Shown here in pieces: positions 1-17,373 of a stretch of DNA of 64,000 bases. The stretch comes from a virus. The translations under genes and the position numbers were made by a program. Every line of letters begins with the position of its first letter. The first letter of the stretch is position 1. The DNA is taken from IMG/VR virus record IMGVR_UViG_3300045988_174170; one strand, written 5' to 3'. The notes below the pieces were generated by a model. That model had not been told where the DNA came from. It did no database searches and saw nothing but the letters and a program-made list of their open reading frames with translations.

Positions 1-1185
1 GACTACCTCATCAACGCACAAGTAGACCTCGGCGTATACCCATACCCAATCGAATGGACAACCTACGACAAAGAAAACCCCGAAGCGGAATGGGACTTCT
101 ACCCCGGACACGTCATCGCCAGCAACTTCTACAAAGCTATCCTAGAATACATCGACCGAGCACCCGAAAAGAACGACGCTTTCCTCGCCTTCCAAGGGCT
201 ACTAGTCTACCGCACAGACACAGAACTAGCATCCATCCAAGGCGAAGTAAGCCCCGACGAACAACACATCAACGGGTCACCATACATCGGGCGCTGTATC
301 ACCATCACCTCCAAAAAAGGTGGAACAGGTAAAACCACAACCTCACTAGGACTAGCAAACGCCCTAGCCAAATACAGCCAAAAAGCCGTAGAAGAAGGAC
401 GCGCCAAAACCCCACTAAAAATCATCGTCATCGACCTCGACCTACAAGACGGACAAGTAGGATACGACACAGGCAACCAAGCAAAAACCGTAGTAGGCAT
501 CTTTGACGACTTCCGCTCAGAATACCGCATACTAGGCGAAGACCCCGCCGAAGACTGGCGTATCATCAACGACAACATCAACCACAACACCCGAGTAGGA
601 GTAGACACACTACTAGCACCCGAAAACCCAACCGACCTCAACGACCTACGCCCACCATTCTACCGCACCATCATCCAGGCAATCCGCGAACACTACGATA
701 TTGTCATCATCGACACATCAGTACTACTCAACGACCCCTACATGAAAGAATGTGCATACCCCCTAACCCACAAACTGTACTACGTGACACAGCCACACTT
801 CAAGCCGCTAATTACCATGAAACGACAGTTTGTGTACGGTCTAGGCTCAGGACGGCACGGCGGAGGAATGGACCCGCGCCGCATCAGTGTATTCGTAAAC
901 GGCGTAGAAGACGAAGATACCGTCAAAGCAGGTTCAGCAGTATCACTCCCCGGAGTGCAAGACTACTGCGCCGCAGGAATCGAAGTGCTCACAGGCGTAC
1001 CATACCTACACAGGAAAGTACTAGACGCAACCAACCCGCGCCTACCCGGAGGATTCGACTACCTACTAGAAAACGACGGATACCGCGAAGGTATGGAAGT
1101 GCTACTATACGACATCATTAGGGGTACCGACTACCCGCTATTTGATGCGGAAACAGCTGAAGCTTTTGAAGCTGACTACCTATAA
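1..1185 (+). CDS. ParA/MinD-family P-loop ATPase (CpaE/TadZ-like), 5'-partial at window edge
   Basis: Frame 1 is open from nt 1 to TAA 1183-1185. Deviant Walker A 'ITSKKGGTGKTTTSLGLA' and a hydrophobic 'IVIIDT' Walker B-like strand. The track ORF 742..1185 is only its C-terminal part. Confidence 0.75.
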   Translation, partial: DYLINAQVDLGVYPYPIEWTTYDKENPEAEWDFYPGHVIASNFYKAILEYIDRAPEKNDAFLAFQGLLVYRTDTELASIQGEVSPDEQHINGSPYIGRCITITSKKGGTGKTTTSLGLANALAKYSQKAVEEGRAKTPLKIIVIDLDLQDGQVGYDTGNQAKTVVGIFDDFRSEYRILGEDPAEDWRIINDNINHNTRVGVDTLLAPENPTDLNDLRPPFYRTIIQAIREHYDIVIIDTSVLLNDPYMKECAYPLTHKLYYVTQPHFKPLITMKRQFVYGLGSGRHGGGMDPRRISVFVNGVEDEDTVKAGSAVSLPGVQDYCAAGIEVLTGVPYLHRKVLDATNPRLPGGFDYLLENDGYREGMEVLLYDIIRGTDYPLFDAETAEAFEADYL

Positions 1186-1200
1186 AATCAGCACCAAAAA

Positions 1201-1248
1201 ATTAAGGCGGGAAGCGACCTGTAAAAACAAGTCACTTCCCGCCTTAAT
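1201..1248. terminator. bidirectional hairpin terminator between convergent genes
   Basis: 14-bp perfect stem ATTAAGGCGGGAAG / CTTCCCGCCTTAAT with a 20-nt loop, sitting between ParA-like (+) and 1255..1524 (-). Confidence 0.55.
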
Positions 1249-1254
1249 GCACTT

Positions 1255-1524
1255 TCAGACTAGAGGAACCGTTACCTCATCATCCCAAGAATTGCTAGGA
1301 GCCGTATTTTCCACCACCTGCGGTGACTCAGGTATCACCCAGCCGATAAACAAGCAGATAGCTGATATTACAAGTAGCAAAATAAAAATAGTTCCGCTAC
1401 CATTCCAGAACTTAACATCACCCAACTGCCCAACAATAAATCCAAGAAACATGATTCCAGGGGCGATAATCAGCATAAGTGAAGCGCCAACCATGCAAGC
1501 CCAGCGCTTCACCTCACCTAGCAT
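1255..1524 (-). CDS. small membrane protein
   Basis: Track ORF 1255..1548. The GTG at 1548 abuts the SD, whereas the ATG at 1524 has GAGGTG 12 nt upstream. Two hydrophobic segments. Confidence 0.4.
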   Translation of the reverse strand: MLGEVKRWACMVGASLMLIIAPGIMFLGFIVGQLGDVKFWNGSGTIFILLLVISAICLFIGWVIPESPQVVENTAPSNSWDDEVTVPLV

Positions 1525-1597
1525 TTGAGAACTATTCACCTCAAACACCCACCTAACGGATAAACAATCATTTTACATGAGAATCATATCCGCAACT

Positions 1598-2104
1598 TTA
1601 CAGGCGCGTAACAACAAGAAGAAAGCCAAGCCCCAGAAATATTAAAACAATAAAACTTATAAGGATTTTAAGAACTTTCTGAACCTCGCCTGTTTTTTCG
1701 GTTTTACTATCCTTGCAGATGCCTGTGCTAACACTGTATGACCCAATGACAGTAGTGCATTTATCAGAAGGGGAAGAACTAGGAGTAGAAGGCGTGGGGC
1801 TAGGCGAAGAGGTTACTTGATTTGCAGGTGCTGACGCTGTGTGCTTAGGTAGTACATGCTGTGTAACACCATAAAGTGCGCCGCCAAGCAACCCAAGAGT
1901 GAAACAGATACCAATAATAACGGCAATAGTTTTACCCAGCTCTCGACGTTTTCACCGTGACTTCTCAGCATCCTGTGCTTTCTGGATACCTTCAACCCAA
2001 TCACACTGCAACTTATCGTAACCCAAGATACGGGCTGAGCCCGCATACGGTGATTCTTTTATCTGCATCGCCGCATTATGCTCTTTGGTATAGACCTTAG
2101 TCAT
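1598..2104 (-). pseudogene. paralog of the 2119..2661 membrane protein interrupted by an in-frame TGA (1952..1954); nonsense-inactivated or read-through/recoded
   Basis: ATG at 2104 with AAGGGG 13 nt upstream. 50 codons align to paralog residues 12-61 (SPYAGSARILGYDKLQCDWVEGIQKAQDAEKSR vs SPYMGAARVLGYDHKQRDWIKAIQDAKDAEEAR). TGA sits at the position of Val in the paralog. The same frame then continues (KRRELGKTIAVIIGI...) for 117 more codons into track ORF 1598..1891, including the TM segments. Confidence 0.45.
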
Positions 2105-2118
2105 AAGAGTTAGACCCC

Positions 2119-2661
2119 TTATTCTATTGCCCCAACGGAGGATATGCTATTTGAGCTTTTACTCGGTGGTGCGGGCAGGTTGTTCATTGCGTAAAATACA
2201 GCTCCAAGCAATGACAGAACGACGATAAGTGGGATAATTAGCCTTATGTTTTGAGCTTTTACGGCATGGAACATGCCAAAAAGAACTATCAAGAGGCTAA
2301 CTACCATAAACAGTTGCATTGCCCTGGAGGAGAAAGGGCTTGTACTGCTACTCGAACTAGTTGTACTTGCTGGTGTCGATTTAGGGAGCAAGTCACCCCA
2401 CGGCACTTGGGAAAGCCCGTAGATAGCCGCAATGATAAGACCGATAATCGCACCAATAATAACTAGAACACCTAGTACCTTGAGTGCTGATTTACCTAGC
2501 TCTTGGCGGGCTACCCGCGCCTCTTCAGCATCCTTAGCGTCCTGAATAGCTTTAATCCAGTCACGCTGTTTATGGTCATAACCCAAGACACGAGCGGCAC
2601 CCATGTACGGCGAGTTAGCTACACGCTCAATTATTCCTTGCCCAGTATTTGCGGTACTCAA
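2119..2661 (-). CDS. small membrane protein (soluble N-domain, TM helices, Ser/Thr-rich tail); likely PspA-associated anchor
   Basis: 180-aa ORF. TTG start 5 nt after the PspA-like stop, with AAAGAGAAAGGG upstream. Hydrophobic stretches LKVLGVLVIIGAIIGLIIAAIYGL and MQLFMVVSLLIVLFGMF. A paralog lies immediately downstream. Confidence 0.55.
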   Translation of the reverse strand: MSTANTGQGIIERVANSPYMGAARVLGYDHKQRDWIKAIQDAKDAEEARVARQELGKSALKVLGVLVIIGAIIGLIIAAIYGLSQVPWGDLLPKSTPASTTSSSSSTSPFSSRAMQLFMVVSLLIVLFGMFHAVKAQNIRLIIPLIVVLSLLGAVFYAMNNLPAPPSKSSNSISSVGAIE

Positions 2662-2666
2662 AAGAA

Positions 2667-3587
2667 CTACAGCCCTTTCTCTTTACGTAGAGCTTCCAGG
2701 CGTTCCTGTGCCGTCAAGCGGGTAAACTCATAGTCGTTACTACCCTCTTGAACTTCCCGCATACCCTGCAAACGAGCCTCGGCTTCCTCGGCAAGTTTAT
2801 CGAACGCGGAGCCGGTAGTCACGTCGCTAAGCTTGTCCTTCAAGCTATTCACCAGTTCTTGCTGTTTCTGTGAAGTATGCAAATCACCTAGGCGACGCAC
2901 CCCACGCTCAGCTTCCTTCAAGATACTAAGATTGCTCTTAAAAGCCGCCTCCGTATCCTTCAGGAACTTACGGCTAACCCTCAGAGAGTTTTCAGCGTCA
3001 ATAAGCTCGATAGCCAGCTCCTCATTGCGGGCGGCAACCTCTTCAGCATCACCCTTCTTACGCCAACTACTCTGACCCTTCAGGCCAGCTTCAATCTCTG
3101 ACTCTAGACGCTTAACCTTAGCCTCCAACATGGCAATATCATCTAGATAGTCAATGATATTAGGTGCCGAATCACCCAAAGCTTCACGTGTCTCAGCAAT
3201 CAGTTTCAGACCCTTAGCAATCTCTTCTTCGTTTTCCATACCTACACTGCTCATGCGTTCAAAAGCCCTTTCAAAAGTAATAATTTTCTCTAGCCTACTA
3301 TCAGACGGTAAACCCCGCCCAACGTAGTACACCTTAGCCGCCGCCAACGTCTCCCGCCTAATCTTCACCAAGTCAGAGGTAAACATCAGGTCAGCACCCT
3401 CACGTTTCTGTGCACCCCTAGCCTTAATAAGAGCACTCCTCAAACTTTCAGGGCACCCCGTGTCGTAATAAGTAAGCAAAGCATCAGCAAGCGTAAGCTT
3501 CTGCTCCAAAACAAGCATCGGTTCAAGCTCGGTAGGCGGCTCAACCTTAGCTTCACGTCGGAAAAACTTCAAAATAGAACCTTTCAT
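2667..3587 (-). CDS. PspA/IM30 (Vipp1/LiaH)-like coiled-coil protein (tentative)
   Basis: Track ORF 2667..3704. The start is more likely M40 (ATG 3587), because a TGACCG-17-TACAAT promoter lies downstream of the 3704 start. N-terminal amphipathic MKGSILKFFRRE, a long heptad-rich coiled coil, and a C-terminal 'SAFDKLAEEAEARLQGM' reminiscent of the PspA/Vipp1 'AFERMEEKV' helix. Similarity is judged by eye only. Confidence 0.45.
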   Translation of the reverse strand: MKGSILKFFRREAKVEPPTELEPMLVLEQKLTLADALLTYYDTGCPESLRSALIKARGAQKREGADLMFTSDLVKIRRETLAAAKVYYVGRGLPSDSRLEKIITFERAFERMSSVGMENEEEIAKGLKLIAETREALGDSAPNIIDYLDDIAMLEAKVKRLESEIEAGLKGQSSWRKKGDAEEVAARNEELAIELIDAENSLRVSRKFLKDTEAAFKSNLSILKEAERGVRRLGDLHTSQKQQELVNSLKDKLSDVTTGSAFDKLAEEAEARLQGMREVQEGSNDYEFTRLTAQERLEALRKEKGL

Positions 3588-3608
3588 AACAAAATTAATA
3601 ACAAACTC

Positions 3609-3637
3609 ATTGTAGCATGTGTGACATAAGGCGGTCA
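3609..3637 (-). promoter_or_regulatory. sigma70-like promoter TGACCG-17-TGcTACAAT for the PspA-like operon
   Basis: Read on the minus strand: -35 TGACCG (3637..3632), 17-bp spacer, extended -10 TGCTACAAT (3617..3609). Confidence 0.45.
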
Positions 3638-3731
3638 CCCCCGAAACACAAAGGCAAAACACGGTCAGCAAGCTATAGGTTACACAGCCTAAAAAAGACC
3701 CCAAACAACCAGTAAAGGAAACACAGACGCA

Positions 3732-5288
3732 ATGACCACTACCGCTGGGCTTTCACTCAACCAAATGCGCAAAGCAACAAAGCGACCCAACAACGTTGCT
3801 GAAACACGCAAACGACTCAACCGAATCAACGAAGAAGTAGCCGCCCACGCGGAAGTAACCCCCAACGAACAGCCAGCCACCAAAGAAAAAGAAGGCACCA
3901 CCCTCACAGCTGAAGAACTCAATGAAATCATTGAATCAGCAATCAGCGCCGCCGCCAACGCAAACCGAAGCCAAGAAAAACCAGAAAAGACTGAAACACC
4001 CAAAGTAGACACGTCACAAGCACGTACCATCAAGACAAGTCTAGGTGACGGCAACCCGCTACGATACTCAGTGCCCGAAGCCCGCGACGAACCGCCCGGC
4101 TTCCCAATCTGCGCAATCCTAACGGAAGCAATCAACAGGGGCGCAACAGACGTATACATCACCCCAGATACACCTATCCGCTTCAAAATCAAAGGCGGAA
4201 ACAACATCTACGACGGGTTCAAAATCCCAGACCGAACCGAAATTAACCGTATGATGAAGGTAATCATCCCAACAGGTGAACAAGACATCTTCACCTCACA
4301 GAAAGAGCTTGATACCTCATATACGCTACCCCTATACGAACATGCCGGTCGAAGGACACGTCTCAACGTCAGCGCGGCAAGCCCCGGATTCGGTAACGCG
4401 GTACTGTCATTCCGTATCCTAGCCGGAAACCTGTACCATCCAAAGTATTACGGGCTACCTGACGTAGTACTTAAAGCAATGCACCAATCCGGCGGACTTA
4501 TCGTATTCTCGGGACCAACCGGTTCAGGTAAAACAACCAGTATCGCGTCGCTACTACTCTACGCATCAAGGGAAGTACATCGACCCGACGCTAACGGCAA
4601 CCCAACAGGGCCGACAATCATCACCATTGAACGCCCAATTGAGTACCTGTTCGACAATAACAATGAGAAGGCAAACGGCTCACTCTTCATCCAGCGTGAA
4701 GTAGGACGTGACACATACTCATTCGATAACGCTATCTCATCAGCTATGCGACAGCAACCTAACATCATCCTTATTGGTGAGGTTAGGAAGTCAGTTGAAA
4801 TGCAAGCCGCTCTAACTGCCGCAACCACCGGTCACCTGACCTTGACCACAGTACACGCCGAAGATACAGCGGGTATTATCCAGCGCCTTATGAGTGCCGC
4901 AGACACCGGTGCGAACACCCGTGAAGACGTTCTACGTTCAATTGCCGCCTCTGGTCGAGTCTTTGTCACGCAGGCTCTAGTAGACCGAATCGACGGCGAA
5001 AAGATAGCTGTACACGAAGTTCTTGTCATCAAGCAGTCTGACCAGTCCCTCATTCAGGCAATTCAAGAAGGCGACTTCCGACATATCCGTCAGTCTCTAC
5101 AAGCAACAGGTGAAGACATGAGTAGTCGCCTAGTGGAACTTTGCCGCGAAGGTGGGCCTTGCTACGTCGAAGCGGCGTTGAAGCACAGCCCCGACCCCAA
5201 TAGGTTCTGGCAACTTATCCAGCTTGAAAAGTCGAACGGAATTGAGCACAACTATGACCCGAACAAGAAGGAAGAAGACCTGTGGTAG
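3732..5288 (+). CDS. PilT/GspE/VirB11-family secretion (traffic) ATPase
   Basis: Walker A 'FSGPTGSGKTTS', Asp box 'IITIERPIEY', Walker B 'NIILIGEVR', His box 'TGHLTLTTVHA'. The N-domain 'AILTEAINRGATDVYITPDTPIRFKIKG' is PilT-N-like. AAAGGA RBS. Confidence 0.85.
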   Translation: MTTTAGLSLNQMRKATKRPNNVAETRKRLNRINEEVAAHAEVTPNEQPATKEKEGTTLTAEELNEIIESAISAAANANRSQEKPEKTETPKVDTSQARTIKTSLGDGNPLRYSVPEARDEPPGFPICAILTEAINRGATDVYITPDTPIRFKIKGGNNIYDGFKIPDRTEINRMMKVIIPTGEQDIFTSQKELDTSYTLPLYEHAGRRTRLNVSAASPGFGNAVLSFRILAGNLYHPKYYGLPDVVLKAMHQSGGLIVFSGPTGSGKTTSIASLLLYASREVHRPDANGNPTGPTIITIERPIEYLFDNNNEKANGSLFIQREVGRDTYSFDNAISSAMRQQPNIILIGEVRKSVEMQAALTAATTGHLTLTTVHAEDTAGIIQRLMSAADTGANTREDVLRSIAASGRVFVTQALVDRIDGEKIAVHEVLVIKQSDQSLIQAIQEGDFRHIRQSLQATGEDMSSRLVELCREGGPCYVEAALKHSPDPNRFWQLIQLEKSNGIEHNYDPNKKEEDLW

Positions 5289-5688
5289 AGTAGCGTAAAC
5301 TGCATAACAAAAACCCCTCAAGAGAATCATCTTGAGGGGTTTTTGTTGTTATAACCTTATGGCTTTACAGTCCGCGAGAGTAATAGCCACATAACATGCC
5401 ACAGATAGCCCAAGAAGCCACCATATAGCCCCTAAAAGCAAGCTTATTACTAGTAAGTGGGCTATGAAAAACCTTGCCTTTAGAGAGCTATATAAGGATT
5501 CAACACACATACTGGAATATATTAGGAAAGGTGGACACCATACAGAAGTAAAGACAAAATATACACAACTAGAACAACGGAACCTACAGGCAGGAAGTCG
5601 AGCACCAGCCACGTAGCCCAGCATACGTAAAAAGGGGAACCTTCAGCACAATCAAGCTAAAGGTTCCCCCTTTTTTTGTCACGACACA

Positions 5689-7332
5689 CTAGAAACTAAA
5701 AACAGATTCCGTATTCTCAAACACGCCACCTTCAGGACGTTCCAACCTGTAAGCAACAATACGGTCAGAAACCCCCTCCTCAGTAGCCCACTTATTCACG
5801 CGGCGAACCATAGTGTCCGATGTGCACAACCAAACCACCTTACTGAACACTGAACGGTCATCACGGTACTGCTCCAAAATCTCAACCAGCTTACCCCTAG
5901 ACTTAGAGGAACCACGCTCAACCTCAACCGCAATACTACGCGCCTCACCATTCTCACCACGCGGCAAAATAGCCACAATATCCGGCACATGGAAAGTCGC
6001 TGTAGAAGCCGCCGACAAAACAGCCCACATCCACTCATTACCACCAAAACACTCAGGGCCAACACCACTACCACCACCAGCACGCCACTCACGCAAAATC
6101 CTAGCACGCTCAGCAATCAGATAATCACGCATCTCAAGCGCATTATTACCCCTCAAAAGACCCTGCAAAGAACCATTAATCTGACGGTCAGACACAACGT
6201 TAAACCCACGAAGAGCAGAACCACCTGAAGAACGACCACCCCAAACACCAGTACCAAGATTCAATACGTCAGTAGACCCGCACCACAACAAGGCACCAAC
6301 ATATGTAACAAGAACCCTATGCGGAAACTCCATATTGCCCAAAGATGAACGCTTAAACGCGCCGCCACCAACACCAAACTCATCAAGCCCAACACGAGTA
6401 CCCACCCAAACACGGTGACCACCAGCACCCGCAACATCAACAGCCTCAATACAGCCCCTAGACTGCAAACCCTTCAAATACTTCAAAGCCGTAACACGAG
6501 TAGACACACCAAGCAAAAGCATAGTAGCCCTAACATCAACCCAACCAAAAATACCGATAAAGCTCATAATCTCAACCTCACGGCGAACACCCATAAGGCG
6601 AGGACGAACACCACCATCAGCACGCTCCTTAGAACGCAAACGCTTCACCCTAGCCTCAACAACATCAGGCGACTCGCCAACCAGCGGCGGCGACACAACA
6701 TCAACACCACCAACACGACTCAACCAATAAGAAGACTGCTCAACAGCCAAAACATTAGAAACTTCAACAGACGACATAACGCCGCCCCTCCCATCATAAT
6801 CAAACCTAAAAGAAGACAAATCAGAAACACCAACACCAACAGGTAACCCCAAAGAACCAGAACCGGAACCAGGCGGCGCAACAAGACCACCCAAAACCAA
6901 ATCCTCAACCCCCGCAGACTCACCCAAAGCACGGGCACCAACACCACCAACAGGAACCCTAAACCCATCAGCAACAGCGTTCAAATCAACCGAACCACCA
7001 AAAGACCAACGAGCACGCGGCGTAACACCAAATGAAAAACCACCATGAGTAAACACAGAACCAGACCAGCCCGACACAGAGGCATCCCACACATAACCCG
7101 AACATTCAGATTCAAACGACCTAAACGGCTTAGGAATATCCGAAAAATCCCTCACACCAACACCACGCTCAAGAACCGACGTGCCACCATGAGGCCAAAC
7201 AAACCCCTCCGTCACATGAGACAAACCAACACCAGAAGGGAACGCCCCCGGCAACAAGCCAGCACCAACACCAGCAATAGCACCAATAACAGGCTTAGAA
7301 ACAGCAGAACCAGCCAAAACCAGAACCTCCAA
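5689..7332 (-). CDS. replication-relaxation (Replic_Relax)-like winged-helix protein with ~260-aa Gly-rich N-terminal extension
   Basis: The C-terminal half 'REVEIMSFIGIFGWVDVRATMLLLGVSTRVTALKYLKGLQSRGCIEAV ... HVPDIVAILPRGENGEARSIAVEVERGSSKSRGKLVEILEQYRD' matches the architecture of plasmid replication-relaxation family proteins, recalled from memory. TTG start, so the start is uncertain. Confidence 0.5.
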   Translation of the reverse strand: MEVLVLAGSAVSKPVIGAIAGVGAGLLPGAFPSGVGLSHVTEGFVWPHGGTSVLERGVGVRDFSDIPKPFRSFESECSGYVWDASVSGWSGSVFTHGGFSFGVTPRARWSFGGSVDLNAVADGFRVPVGGVGARALGESAGVEDLVLGGLVAPPGSGSGSLGLPVGVGVSDLSSFRFDYDGRGGVMSSVEVSNVLAVEQSSYWLSRVGGVDVVSPPLVGESPDVVEARVKRLRSKERADGGVRPRLMGVRREVEIMSFIGIFGWVDVRATMLLLGVSTRVTALKYLKGLQSRGCIEAVDVAGAGGHRVWVGTRVGLDEFGVGGGAFKRSSLGNMEFPHRVLVTYVGALLWCGSTDVLNLGTGVWGGRSSGGSALRGFNVVSDRQINGSLQGLLRGNNALEMRDYLIAERARILREWRAGGGSGVGPECFGGNEWMWAVLSAASTATFHVPDIVAILPRGENGEARSIAVEVERGSSKSRGKLVEILEQYRDDRSVFSKVVWLCTSDTMVRRVNKWATEEGVSDRIVAYRLERPEGGVFENTESVFSF

Positions 7333-7417
7333 AAAGAATCAACAAAAACAAGGTATAAAACAGGCGCAACCCCGCAAAATCAGAGCCGCGCCCACCACCA
7401 ACATAGCGGCAAATAAA

Positions 7418-7437
7418 AAAGTGTGCTACAATTATAA
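7418..7437. promoter_or_regulatory. back-to-back overlapping divergent extended -10 promoters (TGCTACAAT on + / TGTTATAAT on -)
   Basis: gtgTGCTACAATtataacagta. The + strand element feeds 7478 and its reverse complement TGTTATAAT feeds 5689..7332. Confidence 0.4.
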
Positions 7438-7477
7438 CAGTACTTGGTAAACCCCTACAGATAAGGACACCCAACAA

Positions 7478-7669
7478 GTGAACACCCCAACCAACGGCAA
7501 GAACTACCTCAACGGCAAGCTCATTGAAAACCCCATCGGATACCTCTTCGGAGCGGATTATGCAGAGACGCTAGATGAAGACACTAAAGCCTACATGGAA
7601 TACCTTGTTAAGGAGTTTGATAGTTGGGACGAAGAAGCAAAGAATAGCAACACCGAAAGCGAACAGTAA
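7478..7669 (+). CDS. hypothetical protein (GTG start)
   Basis: 63-aa ORF with AAGGA 12 nt upstream. Confidence 0.45.
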   Translation: MNTPTNGKNYLNGKLIENPIGYLFGADYAETLDEDTKAYMEYLVKEFDSWDEEAKNSNTESEQ

Positions 7670-7671
7670 CA

Positions 7672-7986
7672 ATGTTTAGCCAACAGGAATATTATCCCAT
7701 CCTGGCACTAACACTAGAAACCCGTGTACGTAGACCAATGGGCGGAGGCCCACAGTTGGCACGTATGCTAGTCGTACACTTCGTAGACGCTGAGAATAAC
7801 CCCTGCTACAAAACCTATGGATACTCAGGGATGAGCCCAGAATACGACCTGCCCACTGTAAAAATTGTCTTCAAAAACACCGACACCCCCTACCTTGTTA
7901 AGGCGGGGAATAATGGGCGTGACGAAATCCAGCTAAGCAAAGACCATTGGAAAAATATCCATACCGGTAACGTAAGCCTAATCTAA
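7672..7986 (+). CDS. hypothetical protein
   Basis: 104-aa ORF tightly packed after the previous gene. Confidence 0.5.
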   Translation: MFSQQEYYPILALTLETRVRRPMGGGPQLARMLVVHFVDAENNPCYKTYGYSGMSPEYDLPTVKIVFKNTDTPYLVKAGNNGRDEIQLSKDHWKNIHTGNVSLI

Positions 7987-8017
7987 CCCACCCCTAAGAC
8001 AGAAAGATATTCAAAAC

Positions 8018-8284
8018 ATGAATAACTACACCGTCATCAAAATCCAGTTTGAAACCATCGTAACCGAAAGAACCACATCATACAATACACAGAGCGCAAC
8101 CCGCGTACATTACCTGCAAACCGACGGTACAGTAGCGTCAGTTCGGTACGACCCCGGCGAGCTGAAGATGGTTCTTGACCAGCACGAAGGTAAACTACCC
8201 TACCTCACCGACGATAATGTACTACACGTACACCCGGAACACCTGAAAGACATTCAGACTTCCGTCATCAGGTACTTTAAGTAA
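8018..8284 (+). CDS. hypothetical protein
   Basis: 88-aa ORF, followed by a 17-bp perfect GC hairpin at 8311..8361. Confidence 0.5.
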   Translation: MNNYTVIKIQFETIVTERTTSYNTQSATRVHYLQTDGTVASVRYDPGELKMVLDQHEGKLPYLTDDNVLHVHPEHLKDIQTSVIRYFK

Positions 8285-8394
8285 ACCTGCAAACCAAACC
8301 CGCTAAGAAACGCCCCGGCGGGGCGGCATAAACCACCCCAAACCATGCCGCCCCGCCGGGGTGCACAAGCACTACAGAATAGGAAAACCAACCC

Positions 8395-9186
8395 ATGCTG
8401 AATAACCTTGAGCCCGGCGACATCATCATCACCGATGACCACTTCTATAAAGTCACCCGCACAATGCGCACCCTACGAGGTGTCCTCACCTCAATGCACA
8501 TCCTCGGCAAGGAAGGCGCGGAACAGTATATTAATGCAGAAGGTGGGTACCCCATTGAGCTTATCGGCGGCTTTGACCACATCAAGAAGTCGGAAAATGT
8601 AGATATTGAAGAGTTGTTCGATATGGAACGCGGACGGGATGAACTCATTGAAGGATACACCAAAATTCAAACCCTACTGCCGGGAGCTTACAAGCCCGCC
8701 CAGCCGTCTAAAGCTAACAACCCCAACAGCACCTCATGGATGCTCAACCACCCCGACAAGCTGACCCTAAGCCTACACCCAGCTAAGTGTGAAGAAGAGC
8801 TGGAAAAGATAAAGAGCCTACTAGAAGAAGCGGAACGCAAGCTTCATGATGCGGCATGTGATATTCGAGAGGGGCGCAAAAAGTATGCCGCCAAATACAC
8901 GGAGGTAGCAATCGAGAACGCCACCTATCTAGAAACCGAAGAACACCGCAAGAAGTTCTGCAAAGCAATCAAAGAGGCATACCACGAAAGCTTCCCCTGG
9001 GAAAACCAGCCTTTCAACATCGCCTACCCCCGAATCTACAGCACATCATTCCCTGAAAAATTGCACGCGAAACTTCAGGAAAACGTGTACAACACACACC
9101 AGGAAATTATTAAATCACTACTAGTAATCGAATACCTCGACACCCTAGCGGAAACCCTATACGGTGAACCCAATAAAAAGGGTTAA
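8395..9186 (+). CDS. hypothetical protein with N-terminal 'PGDIIIT' motif
   Basis: 263 aa. The motif LEPGDIIITDD is shared with 16024, 32636 and 42749. RBS AGGAAAA. Confidence 0.6.
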   Translation: MLNNLEPGDIIITDDHFYKVTRTMRTLRGVLTSMHILGKEGAEQYINAEGGYPIELIGGFDHIKKSENVDIEELFDMERGRDELIEGYTKIQTLLPGAYKPAQPSKANNPNSTSWMLNHPDKLTLSLHPAKCEEELEKIKSLLEEAERKLHDAACDIREGRKKYAAKYTEVAIENATYLETEEHRKKFCKAIKEAYHESFPWENQPFNIAYPRIYSTSFPEKLHAKLQENVYNTHQEIIKSLLVIEYLDTLAETLYGEPNKKG

Positions 9187-9234
9187 ACCCTAAAACAAAT
9201 AACCCAACAGGTGCACCCCACCAAGGAGTAAAAC

Positions 9235-9786
9235 ATGACAAAACCCAAGAGCCTATCTTACGGAAACATCAACAACCGCTACATCTTTCACAACTCGTTT
9301 GATACCCCCAGTAGGTACTACTGGACAGCCGATAAAATCGCTAAGCGCGAGAATGAACTCCGCAAAGCAGGCTGGGTAGCACTCCCAGGAACCTTCACCC
9401 TAGACGACCCACAGCGAGAAATCGTTGAGGTTAAACCGGGTACTGAAACCACCAAACACCTAGTGCACCTCATCAGGTTCCTTGCGGGCAAGCACAAGAG
9501 GGAAACTGGCACCCCCTACAAAATGTACGCGCACCTCAATGTATCGGTAAACACCAAAGATGAAGACGGCATTGGTGTAGTCGAAATCAATACCACCTTC
9601 ACTAGTGACCCCGAAGGTAAACACAAGATTGGTGTATCAATGACCACCTGCCTAGATGAACCTTGGGAACTCAGTACTGAAGAATGGCTCAAGATGGACG
9701 GTAAAACCTACCCCATCGGAACCCCTATCTGGAGCGACTGGCACAAAGACATCGAAATCCTAATCAACCCCAAACAAGGTAAATAA
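9235..9786 (+). CDS. hypothetical protein, paralog family C
   Basis: 183 aa, about 55% identical by eye to 10875..11441 (GWVALPG.FTLD.PQR.IV..KPG.ET.KHL.HL..F.AGKH...TGTPY.MYAHLNV). Confidence 0.7.
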   Translation: MTKPKSLSYGNINNRYIFHNSFDTPSRYYWTADKIAKRENELRKAGWVALPGTFTLDDPQREIVEVKPGTETTKHLVHLIRFLAGKHKRETGTPYKMYAHLNVSVNTKDEDGIGVVEINTTFTSDPEGKHKIGVSMTTCLDEPWELSTEEWLKMDGKTYPIGTPIWSDWHKDIEILINPKQGK

Positions 9787-9890
9787 CCCCATAACATAAC
9801 GGCAAAGGGCGCCCCTGAACAATCAGTAAAAGGGGTGCCCTAAACGCCACACTAAACCACCAACACCAAAAACACGGAGAGTAAAACACC

Positions 9891-10790
9891 ATGCGAATCC
9901 CCCTAGCACCCCACACCCTAACCGTAGGCGAAGCCTTCATCCTACAAAACAACAACGAAAAATCCCTATACAAAGTAACCCACACCGAAGGCAACACCAT
10001 CACCGCCGAACGCAAACACACCACCAACAGTGAAACAGCACCCCAAACCATCACCGGAACCCTACTCAACGGAACCCTAACCACCACCACACCAGTACAC
10101 AACACCCGAACACCCAAAATCATCGACCTCAACACCACCAAAACCAACACCATAAAAGCCACCACCAACAAACCCGAATACACCATCATCAGCAAGAACA
10201 CCAACGAAGACATCAACATCTGGCAAACCATCGAAACAATCACACCAGACGTAACCCTAGTACAATCACAAACCACCCCCACCCAAAAACGCATACACCT
10301 AACACCCCAACTACAAAAAGAAATCAACACAAACACCACCAACCTAACCCCCACACACACATTCTACCTAAACAACAACAACACAGAATGTGTACCCCAC
10401 GACGCGGCAAAAGCCCTAAAAACCATCATCAACCACCCCCACTGGAACGCCCTAAAACAAAAAGCAGTCAAGAATAATGACTGGGAAACCACCCTAACCA
10501 CCGACTACCTAACCGACACATACTGGGAACAAATCAGCACCGACTACAGTGACGGCTACGCATGGGGAGTCTCCTACGACCTCATCATCGACTACACCAT
10601 CGACTACGCAGAAGAGCTAAAACACCTCACCAACAGCACCGACCCCCAAACCCCAAACAGCAAAAACCTAACACCCAAACAACAAAAACAACTCACCACA
10701 ATGCTGAACAACGTCATCAAAAAACTCGAACAATCCGAATGGTACGAACCCGACCCCGAAGACTACACCATCATCCCCTACATCGAATAG
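9891..10790 (+). CDS. Thr/Asn/Pro-rich low-complexity protein with structured acidic C-terminal domain
   Basis: 299 aa, GGAGAG RBS, flanked by the family-C paralogs. Its C-terminus (DWETTLTTDYLTDTYWEQISTDYSDGYAWGVSYDLIIDY) is non-repetitive. Confidence 0.5.
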   Translation: MRIPLAPHTLTVGEAFILQNNNEKSLYKVTHTEGNTITAERKHTTNSETAPQTITGTLLNGTLTTTTPVHNTRTPKIIDLNTTKTNTIKATTNKPEYTIISKNTNEDINIWQTIETITPDVTLVQSQTTPTQKRIHLTPQLQKEINTNTTNLTPTHTFYLNNNNTECVPHDAAKALKTIINHPHWNALKQKAVKNNDWETTLTTDYLTDTYWEQISTDYSDGYAWGVSYDLIIDYTIDYAEELKHLTNSTDPQTPNSKNLTPKQQKQLTTMLNNVIKKLEQSEWYEPDPEDYTIIPYIE

Positions 10791-10874
10791 TTTGCATACC
10801 CCTAGCCGGTGTGGTAACCTATACCTACAGGTGCCACACCGGTACCCCAAAACACGCAACCAAGGAAATCAAAA

Positions 10875-11441
10875 ATGAAGTCTTACGAAGATGACATCCT
10901 AAACGGGTATATGTTCTGGGATGACGATAAATGGAATTACAAGGCGAAGATGGTTACTGAAGCTGAAGGCTACCCCTGTGTGGAGCACGCTATCATGTGG
11001 GACAACAGGTTCCGCAAATCAGGCTGGGTAGCACTCCCAGGAGCCTTCACCCTAGACGAACCCCAACGAAAAATCGTCAAAGCTAAACCGGGTCAAGAAA
11101 CAGCTAAGCATCTGATGCACCTCATGGCGTTCCACGCAGGCAAGCACCAGAAAGCAACCGGCACCCCCTACAATATGTACGCGCACCTCAACGTATGGGT
11201 GAACTCCGGTGACGAAGACGACCCCCACGAAATCGGAATTGACGCAACATTTACCAACGACCCCGAAGGTAAAAACCCGGCAGGTGCTTCAATGGCAACC
11301 TACCTAGCAGGTGACTGGGGTGGGCTAACCATGAAAGAATGGCTCAAGCTAGACGGTAAAACCTACCCCGTAGGTTGCCCCATCTGGACAGACTGGGGCA
11401 ACCGAATCGAAATCCTCATCCACCCAAAACGGGGTAAGTAA
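10875..11441 (+). CDS. hypothetical protein, paralog family C
   Basis: 188 aa, paralog of 9235..9786. Confidence 0.7.
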   Translation: MKSYEDDILNGYMFWDDDKWNYKAKMVTEAEGYPCVEHAIMWDNRFRKSGWVALPGAFTLDEPQRKIVKAKPGQETAKHLMHLMAFHAGKHQKATGTPYNMYAHLNVWVNSGDEDDPHEIGIDATFTNDPEGKNPAGASMATYLAGDWGGLTMKEWLKLDGKTYPVGCPIWTDWGNRIEILIHPKRGK

Positions 11442-11455
11442 CCCCAACACAATAA

Positions 11456-11492
11456 GCCCCGGCAACCCAAACAAAACACAGGTTACCGGGGC
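11456..11492. terminator. GC hairpin terminator
   Basis: CCCCGGCAACC ... GGTTACCGGGG followed by CTTC. Confidence 0.45.
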
Positions 11493-11552
11493 TTCATGCT
11501 ACCTTTTCAATACAGAAATCGCGTATCCCGCACTAAGGAAGGAACACCCACC

Positions 11553-11777
11553 ATGAGCTTCTACCACACCAACTGTAGCTACGACCCTACCGATGCCATA
11601 GGCAACGACGACGAATGGAACCCAGGAGAACCAGACTGGCAAACCAACGAAGAAGAATGGGACTGGATAGCTTGGAGAAACAACATCGCCATGTCCGAGC
11701 CACCAGAACACGAATACGAAGACTACCCCAACAGTCCATATGAAAGCGTCTCTGTTGCACTTGAAAACAGGGAATAA
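11553..11777 (+). CDS. small acidic Trp-rich protein
   Basis: Track ORF 11496..11777. The ATG at 11553 has AAGGAAGG upstream. Confidence 0.5.
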   Translation: MSFYHTNCSYDPTDAIGNDDEWNPGEPDWQTNEEEWDWIAWRNNIAMSEPPEHEYEDYPNSPYESVSVALENRE

Positions 11778-11816
11778 GTAAACACCACCAACACCACGTC
11801 GCATATACAGCAAAAC

Positions 11817-11853
11817 CCCCGGCAACCCGCACACGCAGGAAACCGGGGGTTTA
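11817..11853. terminator. bidirectional terminator between convergent genes
   Basis: CCCCCGG-N20-CCGGGGG + TTT. Closely resembles the 11456 hairpin. Confidence 0.5.
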
Positions 11854-11904
11854 CTAACACCCAAAACACCAAACAAAACACCACACCAAACCAGACACTA
11901 AACC

Positions 11905-13422
11905 CTACAATAGGTCAGACACAACACCGGCAACATCCACCAAATCAACACCTAAGCCCGCAACCGGCGAACCCACCGGAACATCAACAACACCACCAAC
12001 AAACCCCTCGCCAACACCAGCAGAACCACCAAACAAACCAGCAGAACCACCACCACCATTCACAACACCAACCGGCGAACCATAACCCTCACTACCACCA
12101 ATAAAACCCAAACCCAAACCAGGCACAATATCAGAACCAGAACTAGAACCCGAACCAGAACCAGCAGAAATAGTACCTACAACATCACCCCAACAGGCAC
12201 GACCAACACCACCAACAACACTATCAACCCAATTACGGACAAGCCACCAACCGGCGAAACGACCCAAACCAGCAACCCTAGCCTCAACCGGCGAAACACC
12301 ACCCAAACCACCAACAGAACCAAACTCAACATCAGGCACATCAACCAATGCAACACCATCAACAGACCCAGACACACCAACCCCAACAGAACCCGCCACA
12401 TCAACAAAACCAGCAGGAGCCAAACGCGAACCAAACACCAAACCCCTATGTGTCACACCATCAACAACAACCTCAGACCCAACACCAACACCACCAGAAA
12501 CACCAACAACACCAGGAACAAAACCACCAGCACCCAAACCCGAAACACCCAAAACACCACGCCAACCAGAACCCCCACCACCAACAGACAAAACACCCAA
12601 AGAAGCCGAAGACAAACCCCAAGACACAGACAAACCACCAAAACCAGACACACCAGACACCACAGGAACACCCACCAAAGACACACCACCAGAACTACCA
12701 GAAACACCACTAGAAATACCCGAACCCACACCAACACTCAAAGGAAAACAACCCACCAAAGCATCACCAACACCACGCCAACCAGAACCCCCACCACCAA
12801 AAGGCAAAGCACCAAACCCCACAGACGAAACACTCAACCCCGAAAAATCACCAACAAAACCCTCCCACAAAGGAACACCAACACCACCAACAACAGACAA
12901 ACCACCACCAGAAACACACCCCAAAACACCACCACACTCCTCCACAAAAGACAAAGACACACCCTCAGACACAGACACCACACCACCACCAGAACACACA
13001 CCACCCACAGACACCAAAAACCCATCCCAAACACTAGAAACAGACCCGGACACACCAAAAGAATCAACAAAACCCACAGAAGCCTCATAGGGGCACTCAA
13101 ATACACTAGAGGTATAATCACCCACCCCAACACCAAAAGAACCCATAGAAGGCTCCACAGGGGGTGTAAAAGAATGACCATACCCCCACGCCTCCTCAAC
13201 ATTAGAAGCAATAAACCCCCTACCACTAACACCCCAAGCAGAAGACTGCCAACCACACTGCACAAAACCAGGCATAGTCAAACCACTAGCAGACGGGGGA
13301 TTATGACCAACAGGGGTATAAAGTACACCACCATCAGGTAGCGTATCACCTATCGGCGGGGCTGTTAGAGTGCCAGGAACCCACGTCTCAACAACACCAA
13401 TAACAGTGCTATCTACAGCCAT
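11905..13422 (-). CDS. Gly/Val/Ser-rich 505-aa protein with internal repeat GGGGSGWRGV
   Basis: Track ORF 11905..13443 (TTG). The ATG at 13422 is preceded by GGGAAAGGG. The non-repetitive N-terminal 100 aa and the terminator at its 3' end support this strand over the mirror-image + strand Thr/Asn ORF. Confidence 0.5.
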   Translation of the reverse strand: MAVDSTVIGVVETWVPGTLTAPPIGDTLPDGGVLYTPVGHNPPSASGLTMPGFVQCGWQSSAWGVSGRGFIASNVEEAWGYGHSFTPPVEPSMGSFGVGVGDYTSSVFECPYEASVGFVDSFGVSGSVSSVWDGFLVSVGGVCSGGGVVSVSEGVSLSFVEECGGVLGCVSGGGLSVVGGVGVPLWEGFVGDFSGLSVSSVGFGALPFGGGGSGWRGVGDALVGCFPLSVGVGSGISSGVSGSSGGVSLVGVPVVSGVSGFGGLSVSWGLSSASLGVLSVGGGGSGWRGVLGVSGLGAGGFVPGVVGVSGGVGVGSEVVVDGVTHRGLVFGSRLAPAGFVDVAGSVGVGVSGSVDGVALVDVPDVEFGSVGGLGGVSPVEARVAGLGRFAGWWLVRNWVDSVVGGVGRACWGDVVGTISAGSGSGSSSGSDIVPGLGLGFIGGSEGYGSPVGVVNGGGGSAGLFGGSAGVGEGFVGGVVDVPVGSPVAGLGVDLVDVAGVVSDLL

Positions 13423-13475
13423 ACTTAAAGCCCTTTCCCGCAATCACAAAAGTGTGACATAAACATAATTTTAGT

Positions 13476-14360
13476 GTGTTATATCTTCTACAAAATTCCG
13501 AGCGGAACACAACCCCCAGAACAGCAATCAAAAAAAATACCCATAGCAAAGGGCTAATAAAAGACGACCCCCAGCACAAAACCCGAATAAAAATAACAAA
13601 AATTTTCCAACACGCCACACCCACCAAAAAACACAAACCACCAAACCCAAAAAACAAGCGCCCATCACACCACCATGATAAACGCCACAACAAACGGGTA
13701 ACACGCAACACAACAGTACACAGCACACATACAGAACACAGAGAAGAACATACACAGCCACACAGGATACATACATACAGGAGAGCGCACACAGGCAGAC
13801 ACATATAGATACATGCAGACAATATACACAGACACACAATAGACACATAAGAGTAACAGGCACACAAGCAACAGACCCAAGGAGAACAACACACAAGACA
13901 CACACAACAGACACATACAGGGGAACAACACATAAGACACAGAACAAAGAAGACCACAAACACAGACACAATAGACACACAAGAGACAAAACACAGGAAC
14001 ACAAGAACACAACAAGGGCACAGGGGAACAGAGGGAACAAAAGCTAGACAGAACACACCAACAACACAGCTAGACAGAAACAACACAACAGACACACAAT
14101 AGACACACAGAGAACAGCTAGACAGAACACACGGGGGGTAACACACGGAACAGAGTAAAGGTAAAGAAGGCTAGACAGGGCACGGGGTAATAAGGGGTAG
14201 AAGAAGGGCGGGTAGAAGGGGAAGGAAAGGGGGGCGGGAAAGAGGAAGCGAAGGGTGGAAGGTAGAGCGGGGTGGTAGTAGGTGGGGTGGTGGTGTTTAT
14301 TCTCTGTTTTGTTTTGTTTTTTGGGGTGGTTTTTCTTGTTTTTGGCTGTTTTTTGGGGGT
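13476..14360. repeat. non-coding low-complexity tract graded CA-rich to GA-rich to GT-rich, with iteron-like direct repeats
   Basis: Three copies of CACAATAGACACA(T/C)A(A/G)GAG at about 13836, 13967 and 14096 with ~130-bp spacing. Four copies of GCTAGACAG at about 14043, 14069, 14117 and 14170. Purine-only GA stretch 14160..14280, GT-only stretch 14280..14420. Confidence 0.7.
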
Positions 14361-14376
14361 GTTTTTTGGTATAATG

Positions 14377-14386
14377 GTTTTGGGTG
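14377..14386 (+). promoter_or_regulatory. extended -10 promoter TGGTATAATG
   Basis: Consensus TGnTATAAT, rightward. Confidence 0.4.
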
Positions 14387-14557
14387 GTTTTTTTGGTATC
14401 TAGCCCTGTGTGGAAAGTAGCCTTTTGCCTTGTCAGGGCGTTATGCACTGTGGTGCATTTTCTTCATTTTTGGGGTCTATAATCAACCTGTAGGGGTTGT
14501 TTTTGGGTTGGTGGGGCACCTTACTCCTGTTTAGGGTATGTGGGTGGGGTTATTTTA

Positions 14558-14565
14558 GGTATAAT
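14558..14565 (+). promoter_or_regulatory. extended -10 promoter (a)GGTATAAT(g) upstream of 14607
   Basis: Second copy of GGTATAATG, 40 nt before the start codon. Confidence 0.4.
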
Positions 14566-14606
14566 GTGGGTTATGTACTGTTCAATTGACGGCTGGAGGC
14601 GTATCT

Positions 14607-14816
14607 GTGTTTGCTACGACTGGTGAGATTCTTTACGTGTTTTTCAGTGGCGCGTTGTTCACTTGTTTTGGGGCTTGGTTCTTTTGGAGGGCGGGTGATA
14701 AGAAGCTTATTTCGCGTGATGGGGTGCATATGGCGTGCTTGTTTTTAGTTCCGGGTGTTCTGTCTATTGTGGTGGCATTGCCAGTTGTTCTGAGGTTAAT
14801 GTTTGGTTGGTCATAA
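14607..14816 (+). CDS. small membrane protein
   Basis: Track ORF 14586 (TTG). The GTG at 14607 has GGAGG 7 nt upstream. Two TM segments. Confidence 0.4.
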   Translation: MFATTGEILYVFFSGALFTCFGAWFFWRAGDKKLISRDGVHMACLFLVPGVLSIVVALPVVLRLMFGWS

Positions 14817-15098
14817 TAAGTAGGAACGCGAGCGCCTAACTGTGAAGGAAGAAGTACCCATCGGGGCGGCTACAGGAACCACCGAAAGCATCGAAGCCGA
14901 AGGCAGTAAAGTACCTGAACCTACCGAAGTAACCGGTAGTATTCTTAGCGACGGAGAACGCGCTGAACTCAAAGAGGCTGAAGAGGCACCGGGTGCACTC
15001 AATGACTAGCCATATAGTTGTTACTGTCGTGTAACGCCTAGACGCAGTTCAGGTCACCCCCCCGCGAGCGCTTACTAGTTGCTTGTACGTGTATTGAA

Positions 15099-15141
15099 CA
15101 CCCCCTAGTGGTTATCCGCCGCTAGGGGGGGGTCTTTTTTT
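15099..15141 (+). terminator. rho-independent terminator
   Basis: CCCCCTAGTGGTTATCCGCCGCTAGGGGGGGG followed by TCTTTTTTT. Confidence 0.6.
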
Positions 15142-15250
15142 GGGGGGGGTGTTGCTTGTGTCTATATGTGCTGTCTGTGTCGCCTGTGGTAGGATGGGGG
15201 TATCTTATTGTTAGTATTGCGGGGGTGTACCCTGAGAGGATTTGATGTTT

Positions 15251-15424
15251 ATGATTGAGCCGTATGTGTCGTTGGTTTGGTGGGCTGTTGGTTGCCTTGT
15301 GGTTGCGGTGGCGTTTGAGGTGGTGGCTTTTAGGTGTGCGTCTGTTGGGCGGCGTTCTTGGTGTGGTTGGTTCTTCAGGCTGGGTTACAGTTTCGGTGGT
15401 TGAGCATAAGCGCCCTGGTAGGGA
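15251..15424 (+). CDS. 57-aa membrane peptide
   Basis: The ATG has GAGAGGA 10 nt upstream. The same 'GGA(A/G)GGATTTGnTnTTT-ATG' context recurs at 16024. Below the track size cut-off. Confidence 0.3.
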
Positions 15425-15656
15425 TAGTGCCTCTGAGATTCGTACTGCTTACACGTGGAGCGAGGTGCGCGGCAATGAGACTGTCGCTAAGACTACTACT
15501 GTTGAGCAGGATGACGTTTCGGTAGTTGAAGACGTTGCGGCGGGTGGCACGCCGTGGGTTGAGTACATTCCCATGTATCATCTTGTGCCTGCTGGCATTT
15601 TTGATGGTTCGCACGCTGACCCGGTTCAGGGTAAGCTCTGTGTTCGGGGGGCGTGA
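15255..15656 (+). CDS. hypothetical protein (alternative frame, TTG start; true start unclear)
   Basis: The C-terminal 85 aa are non-repetitive (VEHKRPGRDSASEIRTAYTWSEVRGNETVAK...), but there is no convincing RBS. Confidence 0.25.
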   Translation: MSRMCRWFGGLLVALWLRWRLRWWLLGVRLLGGVLGVVGSSGWVTVSVVEHKRPGRDSASEIRTAYTWSEVRGNETVAKTTTVEQDDVSVVEDVAAGGTPWVEYIPMYHLVPAGIFDGSHADPVQGKLCVRGA

Positions 15657-16023
15657 TACTGACTGTAAGGTGAACGCATTGCGGGCGAACATGAAGTATG
15701 TGCTACATGTCCCGGCGAGCGCCTAATAGTCAATGAACTATCACGCTAGAGGTGGCGTCAAGTTCCGGCGGGTAAGCGCCTCTAGTCGCACCCTAGTTGC
15801 TCAGCGGTAGCCCGTAGTGCCCACGCTCAGCTTTTGACTTAATGTGGGTACTACGGGCTTTTCTGTGCCCTCCTGTAACCTTTCAAGGATTCGGGTATTG
15901 TGGTTACCCGTGTCCGGCGCGTACTGTACATGGCGGCTTGTCTATGGTAGGATAGGTGTATCTTATATTGTTGTTACCCCCTGTTGGTTAGGGGGTGTGT
16001 TCTTTTGGAAGGATTTGTTTTTC

Positions 16024-17127: not shown

Positions 17128-17296
17128 GGGCTAAGAGGGGTTAGTCTATGGAGTCTCTGACCAGGTTTAGGTAACCGCCTGTACTGGAAAGGTGGCACCC
17201 GTTTAGGTGTGTGCGTCTCAGTGGGTGCGGGTCTAAGTGGGTGTATTCCTTGGTGGGTGTGTTCCTTACTGGTGGTTGCCTGGATGGTTCACTGTG

Positions 17297-17340: not shown

Positions 17341-17373
17341 ATTTATTTCTTGTGGAAGGAAGGTGTACCTATC

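Follow-up and report, generated by a model that had tools for sequence, protein, structure and literature searches.

The 64,000-nucleotide stretch of DNA analyzed here (IMG/VR virus record IMGVR_UViG_3300045988_174170; referred to below, at its full length, as the window) carries near its start four minus-strand genes, which encode a soluble coiled-coil protein of 306 amino acids (aa), two paralogous membrane anchors and a small protein with two transmembrane (TM) segments. Judged by their layout and signals, the four genes form a self-contained operon with its own predicted promoter and terminator. The reading that we favor, tentatively and at a little less than an even chance, is that of a lineage-specific operon of a giant uncultivated oral element, the products of which build a membrane-tethered coiled-coil complex. 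A preliminary description of the same DNA had likened the operon to the envelope-stress modules PspA-PspBC and LiaH-LiaI, and this comparison is re-examined below together with other possible roles of the module.

Organization and conservation of the operon

The four consecutive open reading frames (ORFs), which lie between positions 3638 and 1202 in the order coiled-coil, anchor 1, anchor 2 and small two-TM gene (Table 1), are enclosed by one promoter-like site and one terminator. All of the ORFs listed in the preliminary description are present on the minus strand; its coordinates and gene list are therefore right. A spacing of 5 nt separates the coiled-coil gene from that of anchor 1, and the terminator-like hairpin begins 8 nt past the last stop codon of the operon. 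The operon's own promoter, given previously as TGACCG-17, is predicted here as GTGACC-18-TACAAT at 3638-3609; its TGCTAC(A/T)AT box is unchanged in the loci L001, L006, L008 and L009 although the spacer sequence differs, and the site presumably acts as a promoter. A longer TTG start for the coiled-coil gene at 3704 (345 aa) was rejected, since the conserved N-terminus begins with MK(G)..FFR in all clades and the promoter falls inside the extension.

Table 1. Genes and predicted signals of the operon, in the direction of transcription
Feature	Position	Strand	Description
Promoter-like site	3609..3638	minus	GTGACC, 18-nt spacer, TACAAT, with TG directly upstream (extended -10, sigma-70-like; consensus scan)
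Soluble all-helical coiled-coil protein, 306 aa	2667-3587	minus	ORF, ATG start
Membrane anchor paralog 1, 180 aa	2119-2661	minus	ORF, TTG start 5 nt after the coiled-coil stop
Membrane anchor paralog 2, 168 codons	1598-2104	minus	Interrupted by in-frame TGA (1952-1954)
Small two-TM protein, acidic C-terminal tail	1255-1548	minus	97 aa from GTG 1548 or 89 aa from ATG 1524
Intrinsic-terminator-like hairpin	1202..1247	minus	20-bp stem with 10 G-C pairs, then TTTTTT (scan and sequence)

The operon genes are under purifying selection and are not chance ORFs. Pairwise ratios of nonsynonymous to synonymous substitution rates (dN/dS) lie at 0.10-0.29 in the coiled-coil gene, at 0.17-0.29 in the small gene and at 0.25-0.62 in the anchors. 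Between the window and L009, the coiled-coil proteins are 93% identical, whereas identity falls to 67% in anchor 1 and to 45% in anchor 2 (window 1598-2661 versus L009 10927-12026); such fast divergence of the anchors is as would be expected for the exposed part of a complex. The anchor dN/dS values of up to 0.6 suggest allele exchange or diversifying pressure on that exposed part. Second coiled-coil paralogs in L014 and L016 were checked and found to lack support.

Relatives of the 306-aa protein are few, with 19-22 in a set of 5.8 billion clustered proteins. When 1.84 billion proteins were searched exhaustively by profile, 8 representatives of the family came up, and there was no relative in 185,579 bacterial and archaeal species, each represented by a single genome. 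All of the loci that could be traced are metagenome assemblies, and those with a stated origin are human oral. The longest contigs measure 233-291 kb in the close clade and 271-360 kb in the distant clades, with three distant relatives on IMG/VR contigs of 306-360 kb; examples of the long contigs are ERZ27256098 k141_130695 (290,973 bp) and IMGVR_UViG_3300045988_174371. The mobile-element context assumed in the preliminary description thus holds, given contigs of 230-360 kb, the absence of the family from the species genomes and its relatives in IMG/VR.

The genes recur in this order in relatives of 81-96%, 50% and 24-31% identity. In the 81-96% clade, the coiled-coil gene is followed by anchor 1 (166-180 aa), anchor 2 (172-180 aa) and the small protein (95 aa); in the 50% clade, by one 226-aa anchor; in the 24-27% clade, by two paralogous anchors (235-256 aa) and a two-TM protein of 61-69 aa; and in P0020 (the 31% clade), by genes for a soluble protein of 243 aa, a tail-anchored one of 294 aa and a two-TM protein of 77 aa. 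An anchor gene stands directly after the coiled-coil gene in every clade, from 96% to 24% identity, except in P0020, where the soluble 243-aa protein comes first, and a small two-TM gene lies at the corresponding place in the distant clades. The anchors of the 24-27% clade share the plan of those described below, with an hhalign probability of 96.9% over the juxtamembrane region and the first TM helix (TM1). The genomic surroundings of the module differ among the clades.

The coiled-coil protein and its membrane partners

The 306-aa protein has no TM segment (highest 19-residue hydropathy 0.81 in a hydropathy scan) and, being without a hydrophobic segment, is therefore no alpha-pore-forming toxin. 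Its structure was modeled with AlphaFold2 from an alignment widened with relatives of 23-31% identity (predicted local distance difference test score, pLDDT, 80.9; predicted template modeling score, pTM, 0.70); this model replaces an earlier one from 16 close sequences (pLDDT 49.8), the Foldseek matches of which (F-BAR and others, E>=0.13) were meaningless. Residues 1-22 are predicted to be disordered and basic, composed of MKGSILKFFRRE and a Pro-rich linker (pLDDT below 50), and are followed by a well-predicted bundle (residues 23-115) of helices 23-42, 47-62, 70-91 and 96-115. Helices 121-172 and 178-254 then form an antiparallel hairpin of 52+77 residues, and short helices at 261-281 and 286-303 close the C-terminal end. 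The hydrophobic part of the N-terminal LKFFRR motif is absent in the P0024 clade, and the residues unchanged in all clades include P23, L27, Q29, A36-L38, E106-R107, R134, G138, A269, L273 and E278. No Pfam, NCBIfam, PHROGs or PADLOC family was matched by the 306-aa family, and by these searches the protein belongs to no described family.

Anchor 1 is composed, in order, of a conserved N-domain of ~50 aa, a basic stretch, TM1 (about residues 57-85), a Ser/Thr-rich segment and C-terminal hydrophobic helices. Alignment identifies the two anchors as true paralogs: both carry the N-terminal motif SPYxGAARxLGYDxKQxxW, then a TM helix, a segment rich in Ser, Thr and Pro (S/T/P-rich) and, at the C-terminal end, another TM helix. 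Within the N-domain (~50 residues), S17, Y19, G21, A23, L26-G27-Y28, Q32 and W35 are invariant across paralogs and orthologs, and anchor 2 contains a conserved Cys-containing motif, KCTTVIGSYSVSTGICK. Hydropathy indicates two to three TM segments per anchor, one or two of them C-terminal, and we infer a membrane topology in which the N-domain lies in the cytoplasm.

The small protein has hydrophobic segments at 16-45 and 47-76 and is 73% identical to its L006 counterpart; gene callers picked its ATG at 1524 (89 aa) in identical metagenome contigs (L001). Scans of ten module proteins against PHROGs, PADLOC and NCBIfam gave only sub-threshold TM or low-complexity matches.

The preliminary description had presented the two anchors as a pair of paralogs; their paralogy is borne out by the common N-terminal motif, but the second is not intact, an in-frame TGA having been overlooked. 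This TGA (1952-1954) is codon 51 of anchor 2 and leaves a 50-aa ORF and an open 97-aa ORF in the same frame. Codon 51 is TGA in the window, L001 and L002, TAA in L008 (an allele otherwise near-identical to that of L006), and CAA (Gln) in five intact lineages (among them L006, L009, L021 and L022), in which anchor 2 is uninterrupted at 172-180 aa; two different stops thus occur at the same codon. The stop sits exactly at the border of the soluble N-domain and the TM part, and the remaining frame is open. Recoding of TGA under an alternative genetic code was rejected, as the window genes stop normally at TAA or TAG under code 11 and the codon is CAA in five relatives and TAA in another. The anchor 2 of the window is a nonsense allele, either a pseudogene or the source of a free 50-aa N-domain. 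The stops at codon 51 could stem from repeated C-to-T nonsense changes, the coding strand being rich in G+T, or from selection for a truncation by which the N-domain is set free. The first anchor of L010 is likewise split, into 167 + 77 aa.

In the membrane-tethered complex that we favor, the soluble 306-aa hairpin protein would dock, probably via its highly conserved N-terminal helical bundle, on the ~50-aa cytoplasmic N-domains of the two anchors. The anchors would span the membrane and present their S/T/P-rich, Cys-containing segment to the envelope, and the small two-TM protein would complete the membrane part, so that a cytoplasmic coiled-coil scaffold would be coupled to a fast-evolving, surface-exposed module. 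In the window, such a complex would depend on anchor 1, because anchor 2 is there a nonsense allele.

Several points weigh against this proposal. The physical interaction of the module proteins and the membrane recruitment and localization of the 306-aa protein are what we infer, as is its role as a scaffold, and none of the four proteins has a functional annotation in Pfam, NCBIfam, PHROGs or PADLOC. The composition of the module also varies: the 50% clade has a single anchor and no small protein, and P0020 swaps both anchors for its soluble 243-aa and tail-anchored 294-aa proteins. Finally, nonsense alleles occur in two lineages, and one anchor is to that extent dispensable.

Other readings of the module

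The genes that adjoin the operon raise the alternative, which we consider unlikely, that the module is an accessory of envelope-spanning transfer or secretion (Gram-positive type IV secretion-like) or of surface-protein display, with the anchors as channel or stalk and the coiled-coil protein as adaptor. In the window clade, the operon sits between a gene for a T2SSE/VirB11/PilT-type ATPase (3732-5288, 518 aa, PF00437 1.2e-32), transcribed divergently from it, and a set that begins with a convergent gene for a ParA/MinD-like ATPase (window 1-1185). The latter runs off the start of the window and encodes 563 aa in L001, with a KGGTGKTT Walker A motif and an AAA_31 match. Beyond it (L001 12403-15808) lie genes for an AAA_10 VirB4/TcpF-like ATPase (408 aa, 7.3e-38) and a 145-aa membrane protein that is weakly TcpE-like (E 0.0037), and one ORF of the window matches DotD (2e-4). 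Together, the T2SSE, ParA/MinD-like, VirB4/TcpF-like and TcpE-like neighbors suggest an apparatus for transfer of the Gram-positive type. S/T/P-rich extracytoplasmic linkers are typical of wall-spanning proteins, and the anchors carry linkers of this kind; moreover, in three distant clades the module is found downstream of a 612-670-aa secreted protein which was read as a sortase-type substrate. However, neither the 50% clade nor the L010-L014 clades have the secretion-type neighbors next to the module, and the association is therefore not conserved. Furthermore, no module protein scored above threshold for VirB, Tcp, Prg or Dot families (the IcmG/DotF and VirB10 matches, E 0.03-0.5, are TM or low-complexity noise), and the operon has a predicted promoter and terminator of its own.

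The secreted protein (L010 7379-9238, L012 7492-9339, L013 7667-9505 and L014 7175-9187) contains a long Pro/Thr/Glu-rich region and ends with VEAKTGHE, a TM helix and a basic tail. This end looks like a variant sortase signal (LPXTG or LAXTG-type) and may point to a Gram-positive host.

The second alternative, which we regard as distinctly unlikely, is that the 306-aa protein genuinely belongs to the PspA/IM30/ESCRT-III superfamily, from which it would have diverged extremely and gained a docking domain at its N-terminus; LiaI-like anchors would then recruit it, and it would stabilize or remodel the host membrane. Doubtful to the same degree is its extension, in which the protein would represent a new deep PspA/ESCRT-III branch, with the amphipathic helix alpha0 replaced by a docking domain for fast-evolving, envelope-spanning anchors, on oral elements of 230-360 kb and beside a flotillin. 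Several observations fit a distant link. The modeled helix pattern of residues 121-306 (the 52 + 77 residue hairpin and two short helices) would suit PspA, and the C-terminal motifs SAFDKLAEEAEARL and EFTRLTAQERL look, by eye, like SAFERMENKV and QFAQLEA of PspA/Vipp1. Global hhalign against a PspA/Vipp1/LiaH profile that is itself shallow (13 sequences, 3 branches) aligned residues 91-306 colinearly with PspA 1-215 (probability 16%, P 3.6e-4). None of the controls, two with one profile reversed and 20 block-shuffled, scored above 14.1 or aligned over the full length; reversal of both profiles brought the colinear alignment back (score 15.5). When 105 ORF products of the window and related loci were ranked against the PspA profile, family members came 1st, 4th and 5th, and a flotillin gene is present on the same element.

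Against these observations stands a series of negative results, and membership of the PspA/IM30 family is not supported. PF04012 was matched neither by the window protein at E<=1 nor by any of 14 family members at E<=10, a family profile run against the PDB at E<=10 retrieved no PspA or Vipp1 chain, and PspA was not among the 8 matches of the exhaustive search, though the PspA family is very large. HMMER comparisons in both directions with real PspA, Vipp1 and LiaH gave scores no better than reversed or shuffled decoys. Local hhalign gave a probability of 4.8% against the 13-sequence alignment (4.5-5.5% over the local comparisons) and of 4% against E. coli PspA alone, the sequence of which was confirmed against 4WHE, and the P0020 and P0024 members were not outstanding in the profile ranking.

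A fold search of BFVD returned nothing significant, with a phage PspA in 49th place (E 1.5). PspA-family proteins start with an amphipathic helix and continue directly into the hairpin, as seen in the structures of PspA and Vipp1. In the 306-aa protein, alpha0 does not adjoin the hairpin, which is preceded by the disordered residues 1-22 and then by the helical bundle of ~95 residues. Among the membrane proteins of the module, no model for PspB, PspC, LiaI or LiaF matched above threshold (the best, LiaI-LiaF-TM_PspC at E 0.051, reached 13.8 bits where the cut-off is 27, and stood amid TM-only noise), and NCBIfam yielded no Psp/Lia partner family. A helical hairpin, for which the preliminary description had suggested a structure prediction, is present in the AlphaFold2 model (pLDDT 81); as modeled, the likeness to PspA appears to be that of any long helical hairpin. 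With no PF04012 or PDB match, HMMER scores at decoy level, an hhalign probability of 4.8% and a different architecture and different partners, the label "PspA/IM30-like" is not supported.

What can be retained is a resemblance of layout. As in LiaH-LiaI of Bacillus subtilis, PspA-PspB/PspC of E. coli and Vipp1/IM30, a soluble all-helical protein with a long hairpin is combined with small membrane proteins that could recruit it, and with LiaH-LiaI and PspA-PspBC there is the weak colinear profile signal over PspA 1-215. Unlike PspA and LiaH, however, the protein has an N-terminal helical domain of ~95 residues in place of alpha0; unlike in liaIH, the effector gene comes first in the operon; LiaI, PspB and PspC are without the conserved cytoplasmic N-domain and the S/T/P-rich, Cys-containing exposed segment of the anchors described here; and no regulator of the type found in Psp/Lia modules (PspF, LiaRS) adjoins the operon. 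Because the proteins are not demonstrably homologous to LiaH-LiaI or PspA-PspBC, a membrane-stress function is an analogy; the suggested "active management of host membrane integrity" is speculation.

TelA proteins are all-helical and cytoplasmic, of similar size and often encoded together with membrane partners. The 306-aa protein resembles them in these respects but differs in that TelA (PF05816), like PF04012, was not matched at E<=10 by any of the 14 family members; nor was the protein assigned to any other unrelated family of the kind which the preliminary description had named as a competing assignment. Other antiparallel hairpins, those of the IpaB N-terminal domain, the Smc coiled coil, HP0958/CT398 and YaxB, share 9-13% identity with the protein and have no sequence relationship to it; the translocator, ATPase heads, zinc ribbon and pore-forming head that distinguish them are missing from the 306-aa protein. 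The module is an orphan, lineage-specific variant of the theme of a soluble helical effector with small membrane anchors.

Highly unlikely, finally, is that the module is a membrane cassette of the phage type, serving either lysis timing, with the small protein as a holin-like component and the others as regulators, or superinfection exclusion: with its two TM segments and charged C-terminal tail, the small protein resembles a class II holin, there are weak holin matches (Phage_holin_3_6, E 0.026; phrog_2508 holin, E 0.0046, for the L012 counterpart) and a weak superinfection-exclusion (Sie-like) match of the 256-aa L012 anchor (E 0.05), fast-evolving exposed anchors would suit exclusion or receptor masking, and relatives are listed as viral contigs in IMG/VR, but all of these matches fall below any curated threshold (Phage_holin_3_6: 15 bits against a cut-off of 28.4), no endolysin or spanin adjoins the module in any clade examined, and PADLOC gave no match. 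The small protein has no holin family match above cut-off and no lysin gene next to it, and, to our knowledge, the lysis cassettes described so far include no conserved cytoplasmic hairpin protein of 306 aa.

The element and its other features

The window looks like part of a giant element of ~230-290 kb, uncultivated and extrachromosomal or phage-like in nature, from the human oral microbiome. Both jumbo phages and plasmid-like elements of >200 kb have been reported from the mouth (PMC7782811). Most genes of the element encode 120-180 aa, lie on one strand and belong to several paralogous families. Among the 90 ORFs of the window with at least 80 aa, 7 have Pfam matches (T2SSE, Band_7, Flot, DotD, YgjV, DUF7448 and LbH). 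The parts of the element examined showed no gene for a capsid, a terminase or a relaxase, and therefore do not decide between phage and plasmid. No match was obtained when the DNA of bases 1-8000 was compared with phage and plasmid collections, or with tblastn of the 306-aa protein against phages. Identity with the "Inocle" elements was rejected on base composition (GC 24-32% in Inocle versus about 49% here).

The flotillin gene that the preliminary description placed at 54.7 kb was confirmed (54746-56314), both of its domains scoring above cut-off (Band_7 5.7e-21, 75.8 bits against 23.6; Flot 6e-9, 36.5 bits against 27), and a hydrophobic N-terminus is visible in its translation. The protein shares 62-64% identity with flotillins of oral Catonella metagenome-assembled genomes (MAGs; 35% GC) and 53% with the flotillins of Lancefieldella rimae and of an Atopobiaceae MAG (48-52% GC), and the genes flanking these relatives (L017-L020) are unrelated to those of the window. 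The gene was probably acquired from a Gram-positive oral host lineage. An assignment of the host from the flotillin was rejected as ambiguous between Catonella, at 35% GC, and Atopobiaceae, at 48-52% GC, with unrelated flanks on either side.

Over positions 1-18000 of the window, the two strands differ extremely in composition, whichever of them is coding. As far as ~14.15 kb, A and C prevail on the plus strand, with an AT skew of 0.70 and a GC skew of -0.50 at 12-14 kb; from there to ~18 kb, G and T prevail (GC skew +0.3). T is nearly absent from bases 13500-14150, which are made up of imperfect "agacacaca" and "gctagacagaacacac" repeats and are followed by a G/A-rich and then a G/T-rich stretch, the latter with two "ggtataatg" boxes. 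From its composition, the zone at 13500-14400 looks like a replication origin or a strand-switch zone, and the long C/V/L/S-rich "ORF" on the minus strand at 13409-14146 is probably spurious, a product of the scarcity of A on that strand.

Two paralogous left-handed beta-helix proteins (hexapeptide or bactofilin-like) are encoded at 46289-47341 and 59154-60491; their matches are phrog_5070 and phrog_7964 (down to 5.5e-31), and phages of Streptococcus, Bacillus and Xanthomonas encode relatives of 27-35% identity. In tblastn searches against phages, the T2SSE ATPase and the LbH protein found only distant, uninformative matches. A tRNA-Glu gene (anticodon TTC, 63794-63867) is the only RNA gene detected in the 64 kb by ARAGORN and Rfam. 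On contigs of the sister clade (L013 419-4944, L014 1-4056), a T4-type RNA ligase (Rnl1) gene is located near the module, together with a TnpB/Cas12f-like gene in L013 and a gene combining AAA_33 and a metallophosphatase (polynucleotide kinase/phosphatase-like) in L014; by their domain content, these represent a putative RNA-repair set typical of large phages.

For annotation, the consequence of these comparisons is that the PspA label should stay out. If a remote link to PspA/ESCRT-III were nevertheless true, it would constitute a new superfamily architecture and an instance of membrane-maintenance genes that travel on giant elements, and a giant mobile element would carry its own membrane-remodeling toolkit. 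If, on the other hand, the favored reading of a scaffold with membrane anchors is true, the operon would encode a conserved, element-specific membrane complex in the poorly known giant elements of the oral cavity, and it is among the very few genes of these elements for which there is a testable hypothesis.

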